Shown: positions 14,753-20,997 of the stretch, in pieces | Position numbering within the stretch: position 1 is the first letter of the stretch | How the letters are laid out: every line of letters starts with the position of its first letter | Assembly: GCA_042216015.1 (NCBI GenBank) | Contig: JBDGUI010000019.1 | Coordinates: 1 to 20,997, forward strand | DNA: 20,997 nucleotides | Direction: 5' to 3' | Source of the DNA: Halodesulfurarchaeum sp. | GTDB taxonomy: Archaea > Halobacteriota > Halobacteria > Halobacteriales > Halobacteriaceae | Position numbers and translations under genes: made by a program | The notes under the pieces: generated by a model | The model's database searches: none | The model's input: the letters and a program-made list of their open reading frames with translations, nothing else | What the model was told of the DNA's origin: nothing

Positions 14753-14851
14753 GTTTGAAACGTTTCCATTTGGATTCCAATCGTTGTTGTGCCCCGTGAA
14801 TGGAGGGGACGAACGCACGCATTGTGATTTTGTCTTCTGGAAGAAGGGGTA

Positions 14852-14985
14852 TGGGCCCGGAGGGATATTGAACCACGGTCAGTCCGCTCGCTCCGCTCGC
14901 TTCCTTCCCTGCTTCAAATCCCACCGACCCGCATTTCACACCTCGCCGCGGAGATGAAACTCCGCGGCCTCAGTCGGTCAGAAAG
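14852..14985 (-). repeat. tRNA-Trp trailer element: inverted and direct copies of the tRNA 3' end, plus a hairpin
   Basis: Direct copy at 14852-14874, inverted copy at 14911-14933, a 9-bp perfect hairpin at 14945-14968, and GCGAGCGGAGCGAGCGG in the spacer. Confidence 0.85.
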
Positions 14986-15158
14986 TGGGGCCGGAGGGAT
15001 TTGAACCCCCGATCGACTGATATCCCCGGTATGCCTCGGCACTCCAGAGGGTCGTCATCGCGCCCGAGAGCCAGTCGAACGCTCGGTATACCAGTCTGGA
15101 GTGTCGTCGTCGGCGAACCTCTGGAGTCAGTCGCCATTCCTGGCTTGGCCACAGCCCC
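14986..15158 (-). tRNA. trnW: tRNA-Trp (CCA) with a 99-nt intron at 37/38 (exons 15121-15158 and 14986-15021)
   Basis: GGGGCTGTGGCCAAGCCAGGAATGGCGACTGACTCCAG | intron | ATCAGTCGATCGGGGGTTCAAATCCCTCCGGCCCCA. Anticodon CCA at 15122-15124. A bulge-helix-bulge is present (CUCC/GGGG helix with AGA and AUA bulges). The CCA end is not encoded. Confidence 0.97.
15022..15120 (-). ncRNA. Intron-encoded box C/D guide RNA (targets C34 and U39 of pre-tRNA-Trp)
   Basis: Box C ACGACGA 15104-15110, D' CCGA 15083-15086, C' ATGACGA 15052-15058 and D CCGA 15036-15039. The D guide CCTCTGGAGT pairs with ACUCCAGAGG, with the +5 base opposite C34. Same layout as the known haloarchaeal tRNA-Trp intron sRNA. Confidence 0.9.
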
Positions 15159-20757: not shown

Positions 20758-20883
20758 GGTCCCTCTCTCCGTTCGAATTTGTTTCGGTGCTTGACAGATG
20801 AGTGCCTGTCCATATCAATCCCAATTGGGGGCGGGTGATTTGATGGTTTGCTTTTCGAGACTTCCGGAGGCTACCGGGGAGTT

Positions 20884-20976
20884 CGGGCGCGATTGAGAAC
20901 ATCCGATCGGAGCGAAGCACCTCTCTGCGTTCGAATCGCTGCCCGCATTGCTTCTCGCCTTCGTTCGTCGCAAAAG
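20884..20976 (-). repeat. Trailer element of the right-hand tRNA: inverted and direct copies of its 3' end
   Basis: Direct copy at 20884-20900 (GTTCTCAATCGCGCCCG on minus) and inverted copy at 20929-20947 (GTTCGAATCGCTGCCCGCA on plus). Confidence 0.75.
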
Positions 20977-20997
20977 CGGGCCGGGCGCGATTTGAAC
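20977..20997 (-). tRNA. 3' end of a tRNA cut by the window edge (probably tRNA-Lys)
   Basis: The minus strand reads GTTCAAAT-CGCGC-CCGGCCC-G followed by CTTTT: T-loop, T-stem, acceptor strand and discriminator G. Identity is inferred from the implied GGGCCGG acceptor stem; the anticodon is outside the window. Confidence 0.65.

Follow-up and report, generated by a model that had tools for sequence, protein, structure and literature searches.

Units of about 100 nt that contain no open reading frame and are built around further copies of a tRNA tail form a family that is specific to Halobacteria and lies directly behind tRNA genes. These units are insertions that are gained and lost between close relatives and that stack into tandem arrays, and the direct copy of the tRNA tail that each carries is a target duplication whose left edge is fixed at the T-loop. 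We put a probability of about one half on the reading that the units are non-autonomous, ORF-less, site-specific insertion elements of the T-loop type that would be moved in trans and stack into arrays.

Each unit consists of four parts, in the order spacer (S), inverted arm (I), core (H) and direct arm (D). The spacer has a T-rich start followed either by a GC hairpin or by a conserved purine-rich piece (S2), and the inverted arm is an imperfect inverted copy of the tRNA tail. The core measures about 30-45 nt and occurs in several subtypes that are mostly purine-rich on the tRNA strand, and the direct arm runs from tRNA position 52-54 through a few bases past the tRNA 3′ end. The inverted arm pairs with the direct arm to give a long hairpin in which the core is the closing part. 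The central statement of the preliminary description, that this layout is made from the tail of each tRNA on a conserved scaffold, held at many tRNAs and in many genomes. Three refuting conditions had been set beforehand, and none of the three came out against the claim: the arms were not generic, the tRNA end was not false, and the layout did recur at other loci.

Two tRNA trailers of the window

The window, which is the whole stretch of 20,997 nt that was analysed, is an entire contig (C29) of a 1.68-Mb genome (G000). On its minus strand, the tail GTTCAAATCGCGCCCGGCCCG (20997-20977) is followed by CTTTT and then by a purine-rich spacer, an inverted copy of the tail reads GTTCGAATCGCTGCCCG on the plus strand at 20929-20945, and the exact 11-mer AATCGCGCCCG of the tRNA-Lys tail recurs at 20894-20884. 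Reading of the bases confirmed every one of these parts as first described, from the Lys tail and CTTTT to the inverted copy and the direct copy with its 11-nt core. The 11-mer has four occurrences in the genome, which are the tRNA itself (at the ends of contigs C21 and C29), the trailer and one unrelated site. The proposal that the bases at the window edge, 20977-20997, are a genuine tRNA end was also borne out, as the end of C21 and the reverse complement of C29 share a 26-nt overlap, the joined sequence is a tRNA-Lys(CUU) according to ARAGORN, and full-length orthologs of this tRNA, alike in tail and trailer, are present in five further genomes of the genus to which G000 belongs (G009, G001, G002, G005 and G011). 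The parts of this trailer and of a second one, behind tRNA-Trp, are collected in Table 1.

Table 1. Positions of the tRNA genes and trailer parts at the two loci (window coordinates unless a contig is named)
Feature	Position	Strand	Basis
tRNA-Lys(CUU) 3′ end: T-loop, T-stem 3′ strand, acceptor 3′ strand, discriminator	20977..20997	-	C21/C29 overlap, ARAGORN, orthologs
Remaining tRNA-Lys(CUU) gene	contig C21 27023-27097		C21/C29 join
Lys spacer S, type S2: T-rich start, then purine-rich GCGACGAACGAAGG.GAG.AGC	20951..20976	-	alignment A3, trailers
Lys inverted arm I: imperfect reverse complement of the tRNA-Lys tail (4-nt deletion and substitution)	20929..20946	-	sequence
Lys core H: subtype CAGAGAGG-hairpin-CCGA.CG, forms the loop that closes the I:D hairpin	20902..20928	-	alignment A3, fold
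Lys direct arm D: decayed copy of the tRNA-Lys tail with exact 11-nt core AATCGCGCCCG	20881..20901	-	sequence, G009 ortholog
tRNA-Trp(CCA) with 99-nt intron	14986..15158	-	Rfam RF00005 (44.6 bits), ARAGORN
Trp spacer S with 9-bp GC hairpin	14933..14985	-	sequence, fold
Trp inverted arm I	14913..14932	-	sequence, arm scoring
Trp core H: purine-rich subtype CAGGGAAGG..GCGAGCGGAGCGAGCGGACTGACCGT	14875..14912	-	sequence, model
Trp direct arm D: differs from the tRNA tail by a 1-nt insertion and a substitution	14852..14874	-	sequence

In the Lys trailer, the S2 spacer is a conserved scaffold piece that is common to Arg-CCG and Lys-UUU elements (alignment A3), and a covariance model of the module matched at 20876-20952 on the minus strand with 35 bits (E 3.4e-6). 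The direct arm of the G009 ortholog is a perfect 25-nt copy, and relative to this intact unit, the window unit carries substitutions in the inverted arm and the core and has a broken direct arm. The direct arm behind Lys-CUU is degraded in G000, G005 and G001. The window Lys copy is thus an old and decaying ortholog, a fossil and not an active example, of a unit that is intact in a sister genome. When arm specificity was scored against the 31 tRNAs of G000, the Lys-CUU direct arm ranked its own tRNA first (25 against 22 for the best other) and the inverted arm ranked its own tRNA third, margins that are thin because the window copy is decayed.

The tRNA-Trp trailer has the same layout as the Lys-CUU trailer, with spacer, inverted arm, core and direct arm, and matched the model at 14849-14935 on the minus strand with 78.5 bits. 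Both its direct arm (35 against 33) and its inverted arm ranked their own tRNA first among the 31, and this trailer is the better preserved of the two. The preliminary description had also connected the two trailers through an 8-mer, AATGCGGG, and a CGA(A/G)C..GCGAG motif. The 8-mer is real, but it occurs 38 times in the genome and is mostly the complement of the acceptor ends of both tRNAs; the motif is present in both trailers, but in Lys it falls within the spacer and in Trp within the core.

A contig from an RNA library covers the tRNA-Trp tail and the entire trailer at a depth of 3.6, with DNA carry-over possible. In DNA run X2, one contig (depth 113) joins 14882 to 14981 and omits 98 nt of the Trp trailer; this contig may come from another strain or organism. 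Neither contig is counted as evidence of transcription or excision.

Recurrence behind tRNA genes of Halobacteria

The trailer survey covered 31 tRNAs of G000 with at least 100 nt of trailer. In nine of these, a strong direct copy of the tail is found no more than 250 nt away, and the own tRNA ranks first of 31 every time. The direct copies behind Lys-CUU and Leu-CAA are weaker and still rank first, and the inverted copy ranks 1 to 3 in all eleven trailers of this genome that have an inverted arm. Behind tRNA-Leu(CAA), in a region 3′ of the gene (G000:C2:57283-57500), a trailer repeat of another kind is present, in which about 40 nt from the tRNA end (TGCAAAGTGCAGAAGACCCGGAGCGGTCTTCCCTCGCAAA) recur 164 nt downstream without the T-loop part or the usual core.

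The covariance model, which was built on 19 modules, found 14 unique copies in G000, 13 of them behind tRNAs and one at the end of contig C32, and 43 unique copies in a closed 2.09-Mb genome of the same genus (G002). Forty-one of these 43 lie at most 540 nt downstream of 22 tRNAs on the identical strand, one lies behind a tRNA-Pro(CGG) that was overlooked by the Rfam search, and one lies behind a displaced 13-nt tail remnant of a tRNA reading as Arg(UCG). All copies mapped in the two genomes, except the one at the C32 contig end, are tied to tRNA tails, the orientation is that of the tRNA strand in 43 of 43 copies in G002, and 23 of the 44 tRNA genes in G002 carry units.

The covariance model search of Halobacteria that had been proposed as a check showed that the scaffold recurs widely, with matches in 148 of the 151 sampled genomes and between 2 and at least 29 matches per genome. 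Three near-complete genomes in this class-wide search (G050, G054 and G093) had no match to the model. A tRNA was placed by ARAGORN 25-70 nt upstream on the same strand at 28 of the best 30 loci. In a phylum-wide sample, 19 of 20 Halobacteria genomes were matched, and the model gave no match in 130 non-Halobacteria genomes from 20 other families of the phylum, all of which contain tRNAs; tRNA genes alone therefore do not trigger the model.

Searches of existing collections were largely empty. Rfam has no family for the module; a scan of the window at the gathering threshold returned only tRNA, and a scan at E<=1 of five loci with arrays returned only tRNA and noise. A blastn search with the Trp module gave no match among phages and plasmids, the 86-nt query making this a search of low power. 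A pattern scan of IMG/VR yielded 14 loci, 13 of which were ordinary phage tRNAs or unrelated sequence and one of which was a true unit behind a tRNA-Glu at a contig end.

Cognate arms, junctions and arrays

Arm scoring was conducted on 63 of 80 parsed modules, after 15 of 95 model matches had been dropped because they had no recognisable T-loop word. Inverted arms scored a mean of 4.86 against their own direct arm and 3.44 against non-cognate direct arms, and the observed value was reached in 0 of 2000 shuffles. The score with the own direct arm was above the 90th percentile in 28 of the 63 modules and below the non-cognate median in 12. Across 113 distinct aligned modules, 89.8% of the cells in the I:D helix are paired compared to 77.7% after shuffling, and double-sided changes in this helix number 131 compared to 47, with 0 of 500 shuffles reaching the observed value for either measure, although such shuffle controls are inflated by the relatedness of the sampled module copies. 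The inverted arm reflects an A/G variant of the T-loop, with UA in 66 modules and CG in 39. Together, the own-tRNA ranks, the cognate shuffles and the I:D covariation uphold the view that the arms track the adjacent tRNA and not a generic consensus.

Two intact copies had fold z-scores of -5.5 and -6.3, whereas the window Trp unit reached -3.4 and the decayed Lys unit only -1.5. The inverted arm reaches the acceptor strand in 48 of the 63 modules, where it is shorter than the direct arm in 29, equal in 7 and longer in 12. At one locus (L055, G046:C9, module 1501-1586), the core runs opposite to the arms and the tRNA, the sole such case in the best 30 loci and as expected from recombination between two inverted arms.

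Not all arms are cognate. A young Trp unit in G002 has a perfect Trp direct arm and an inverted arm that resembles the tRNA-Val tail, and in tRNA-Lys(UUU) arrays of three genomes of genus g19 (L057, L063 and L068), the last unit has a Lys-type inverted arm and an Arg-type direct arm, which suggests recombination between units of different tRNA loci. From the Val-like arm beside a perfect Trp arm and from the mixed Lys/Arg units, it follows that the direct arm comes from the target and that the inverted arm, in most but not all cases cognate, moves together with the element. In alignment A3, the scaffold formed by S2 and the CAGGGAGG/CAGAGAGG hairpin core is near-identical behind Arg-CCG and Lys-UUU (G002) and behind Lys-CUU (G009, G000 and G005), and both arms differ between these tRNAs in a coordinated way. 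On the strength of this alignment, we take arm switching to be real.

These observations revise the mechanism first suggested, in which each tRNA end is copied into the scaffold. The arms are indeed cognate as a rule, but the direct arm is the usual duplication of a target or att site, its left edge fixed at the T-loop, which is the familiar mark of T-loop-type integration. The inverted arm is imperfect, heritable in tRNA-specific lineages and sometimes non-cognate, as in the 12 modules below the median and in the Val-like Trp unit of G002, and it is therefore not copied afresh from the tRNA at every insertion. Reverse transcription of a mature tRNA was considered as a source and rejected, as the inverted arms in the examples read by eye have no complement of CCA.

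Comparison of close relatives shows both filled and empty sites. In G002, tRNA-Trp is filled by a 116-nt insert between two perfect 30-nt repeats, and in G011 the same tRNA is empty, with the native flank directly after it. Behind tRNA-Leu(UAG), the G000 core lies at +0, and a core of this kind lies at +59 in G011, with a perfect repeat of 81 nt. In related genomes, this tRNA is followed by arrays that contain two to four different units. Copy number varies from 0 to 5 per tRNA within one genus. Arrays of 2-5 units were seen, tRNA-Ser in G002 carries five unlike units, and G075 has four tandem identical units of 111 nt.

Boundaries were analysed in 73 direct arms with their tRNA in view. At the left edge, identity extends 2 nt to the left of T54 in 53 of the 73 (GG, positions 52-53), and tRNA-specific bases at these positions (TG in Lys-CUU, GA in Pro-CGG) were copied in four of six informative cases. 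The right edge falls between +1 and +7 in most copies, and larger values, up to +177, come from tandem units. The target duplication thus has a fixed left edge and a variable right edge, and ranges from about 24-30 nt to 81 nt and more.

Spacers are of more than one kind. The spacer behind tRNA-Ser and Leu-UAG copies the native trailer, and the purine-rich S2 belongs to the scaffold. The idea that the spacer is palindromised native flank was ruled out for Trp in G002, where only 8 nt are common to the flank. The last direct arm of some arrays borders spacer-like sequence and not unrelated native flank, which simple T-loop integration does not predict. At one tRNA-Asp locus (L021, G000:C16:18400-22400), about 1.8 kb lie between the tRNA (2913-2986, -) and an Asp-type module (1010-1092, -), with spacer-like sequence at both ends. 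This insert holds a 381-aa membrane ORF with sub-threshold matches to HisKA and DUF7937 and a 131-aa ORF without a family, and is possibly cargo inside a unit.

Explanations and relation to known systems

The repeat from the T-arm to the 3′ end, the precise left junction, the directionality, the filled and empty sites and the arrays of unlike units are hallmarks of site-specific integration that crosses over in the T-loop and of accretion at an att site, and units that carry no gene would therefore be moved in trans. In the mechanism that we favor, the crossover would take place within the T-loop, which would serve as a T-loop-type att site, and some recombinase would act on the units in trans. 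New units would enter either the tRNA or an existing direct arm, and arrays would grow in this way. A copy that becomes fused to the tRNA body would have to match the tRNA, so that selection would keep the elements cognate. The inverted arm would stay complementary if the I-H-D hairpin were the recombination site itself or a required structure, and after a switch of host tRNA, conversion inside the palindrome may restore the match.

In G002, no recombinase could be tied to the units: five PF00589 matches stand against 43 modules at about 24 tRNAs, and none of the five lies inside a unit. The only integrase gene adjacent to a unit there belongs to a separate insert of about 55 kb. In the contig-level data, no excised or circular form was seen. 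A double-stranded circle of about 110 bp is physically awkward, a cognate inverted arm is not known from tRNA-targeting integrative elements, and the strong class-wide conservation of the core would fit a host function equally well; all three count against the favored reading.

The large insert (G002:C1:1166485-1221439; L084, L085 and L078) lies in a tRNA reading as Arg(UCG) and is bounded by a 13-nt repeat of the tRNA end. A gene for a 385-aa PF00589 integrase is located just inside its far end, and the intact tRNA lies about 55 kb upstream of the displaced tail. The displaced tRNA-Arg tail retains a small module, located beyond the island's own 13-nt repeat. The insert is a classical island that integrated into a tRNA behind which a module was already present, and the modules are therefore not dependent on that integrase. 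Remnants of classical islands were rejected as a general origin of the units, given that the sole integrase-adjacent module in G002 sits beyond the 13-nt repeat of the island.

The closest known relatives of such elements are the tRNA integration sites of tyrosine-integrase elements, of which a T-loop type is reportedly set out in Williams 2002 NAR, and the integrase-less derivatives said to have been described by Pavlovic et al. 2004 as cis-mobilizable elements (CIMEs). These share with the units a direct repeat from the T-arm to the 3′ end, restoration of an intact tRNA, directional insertion, filled and empty sites among relatives and tandem accretion at one tRNA. Unlike the T-loop-type integrative elements, the units are about 100 nt long and gene-free, occur at about half of the tRNA genes rather than at one or two, contain the att segment in inverted form together with a core that is conserved throughout the class, and have no cognate integrase that was found; the genuine island in G002 is bounded by another repeat, 13 nt long. 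Passages of PMC3119063, PMC7002104, PMC7921747 and PMC5861418 describe haloarchaeal islands with partial tRNA repeats.

A second explanation is that the unit is a functional RNA linked to the tRNA, co-transcribed with it and released as a stable hairpin RNA, with the RNA or its processing serving the cell. The I:D helix would mimic the "top half" of a tRNA, formed by acceptor and T-stem, so that RNase P and tRNase Z would excise the unit. This explanation can coexist with mobility and is a serious alternative or parallel role, possible though unlikely in our estimate. The strand shared with the tRNA in all 43 G002 copies, the purine-rich sense strand, the core conserved across the class, the stable hairpins of the intact copies and the covariation of the two arms all agree with it, as does, by analogy, the tRNA-His 3′ trailer of about 60 nt that accumulates in H. 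volcanii (PMC3495736). The RNA-library contig over the tRNA-Trp tail and trailer would point the same way, but its depth is low and may reflect DNA carry-over. Copies decay without being replaced, as with the degraded direct arm behind Lys-CUU in three genomes, and both presence and copy number vary within a genus; this decay and the variation from 0 to 5 copies count against an essential role. In addition, half of the tRNAs have no unit and Rfam holds no matching family.

RtT repeats (Rfam RF00391) of the E. coli tyrT operon offer a parallel, consisting of units behind a tRNA that each end in the tRNA 3′ end and that are thought to be released by tRNA-processing enzymes, at one locus in enterobacteria. 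The haloarchaeal units are likewise repeats directly behind a tRNA that each end in a copy of its 3′ end, but they occur genome-wide at many tRNA species and have an inverted arm. The RtT covariance model gave no match in the Rfam scans of the window and the five array loci.

It is also conceivable, if rather doubtful, that no dedicated enzyme is involved and that the units arise from errors of replication or repair, through template switching or T-loop-primed synthesis, unequal crossing-over and gene conversion between tRNA loci of polyploid cells, with the palindrome then corrected by intrastrand templating. A duplication whose right edge varies from +1 to +177 at a fixed left edge would be consistent with such a process, as would the tandem identical units of G075, the chimeric arrays that join a Lys-type inverted arm to an Arg-type direct arm, and inverted arms that are imperfect and only partly adapted. 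However, the strong orientation bias and the sharp junction at 52-54 in the 73 copies point to a directional and site-specific step, and the conserved core and S2 at unrelated tRNAs need transfer between loci that have only about 11 nt of T-loop homology in common.

A more speculative form of the site-specific reading, to which we assign a low probability, borrows from integron attC sites and the attP hairpin of CTX phage. Common to these systems and the units would be an imperfect palindrome with arms that rebuild a double-stranded site, arrays and the lack of an own recombinase, with host XerCD acting for CTX phage; the arms of the haloarchaeal units derive from tRNA, unlike those of attC and CTX attP, and the likeness is a pure analogy. 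By this analogy, the units may be single-stranded, hairpin-folded att sites that a host recombinase found in all Halobacteria would insert at the T-loop of nearly any tRNA, with the inverted arm re-templated within the palindrome after a switch. If so, the units would be a naturally re-targetable, protein-free insertion module, and their presence at about half of haloarchaeal tRNA genes would be explained.

Transposition as single strands by the "peel and paste" route of IS200/IS605 or PATE elements is improbable. Here the spacer and core would be the end hairpins and the inverted arm a long guide pairing with the cleavage sites, and TnpB-type elements are common in haloarchaea. The two hairpins with conserved purine-rich loops, the ability of the inverted arm to pair with the tRNA tail or the direct arm, and insertion just 3′ of a defined sequence would suit this scheme. 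That family makes no target duplication, however, and the units, unlike IS200/IS605-derived PATE, have a target-derived direct repeat that is perfect even beside a non-cognate inverted arm; the spacer also differs among copies with an identical core. Among other small, non-coding, hairpin-forming, multi-copy, intergenic repeats with subfamilies, MITEs and REPIN/RAYT-type repeats resemble the units, but unlike in MITEs, the unit ends are the tail of the host tRNA itself, the inverted arms vary with the tRNA with no fixed terminal repeat, and the duplication is constant at its left edge and variable at its right, with no fixed short length. Chance resemblance to a generic T-loop consensus in GC-rich sequence with GTTCRAATC-like words, which the small Lys margins and weak Lys fold in the window might suggest, is already refuted by the perfect G009 ortholog, the model matches and the empty outgroup of 130 genomes, and the arm statistics are significant.

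The unit family appears not to have been described before, as no prior description was found in the full-text literature, a body that does not include subscription journals. Work by Hölzle et al. 2012, reportedly entitled "tRNA-like elements in Haloferax volcanii", may overlap with the haloarchaeal units. What is of a known kind here is tRNA-targeted insertion elements and tRNA-linked repeats, and what is new is the cognate inverted arm and the class-wide spread. If the units are insertion elements as we favor, a large share of haloarchaeal tRNA genes would carry unannotated, mobile, hairpin-forming DNA. The cognate inverted arm is the unusual part and implies either a self-folding recombination site or an RNA that mimics the top half of a tRNA; either reading bears on how tRNA genes are invaded, protected and processed. 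The units also explain the "partial tRNAs next to a full copy" in curated genomes, and a passage of one genome paper notes tRNA remnants that adjoin full copies (PMC7921747).

The units are sites of rearrangement, and they plausibly explain many contig ends of G000 at tRNA T-loops or tails. A tRNA T-loop word is present in the outermost 70 nt of 13 of 102 contig ends in this assembly (C2, C3, C4, C8, C11, C13, C14, C21, C29, C31, C36, C39 and C44), several of which end exactly in the T-loop or at the tRNA 3′ end. This suggests that these repeats, or units that vary between strains, are where the assembly breaks. The overlap between C21 and C29 is exactly the 26-mer made up of the tRNA-Lys tail plus CTTTT.
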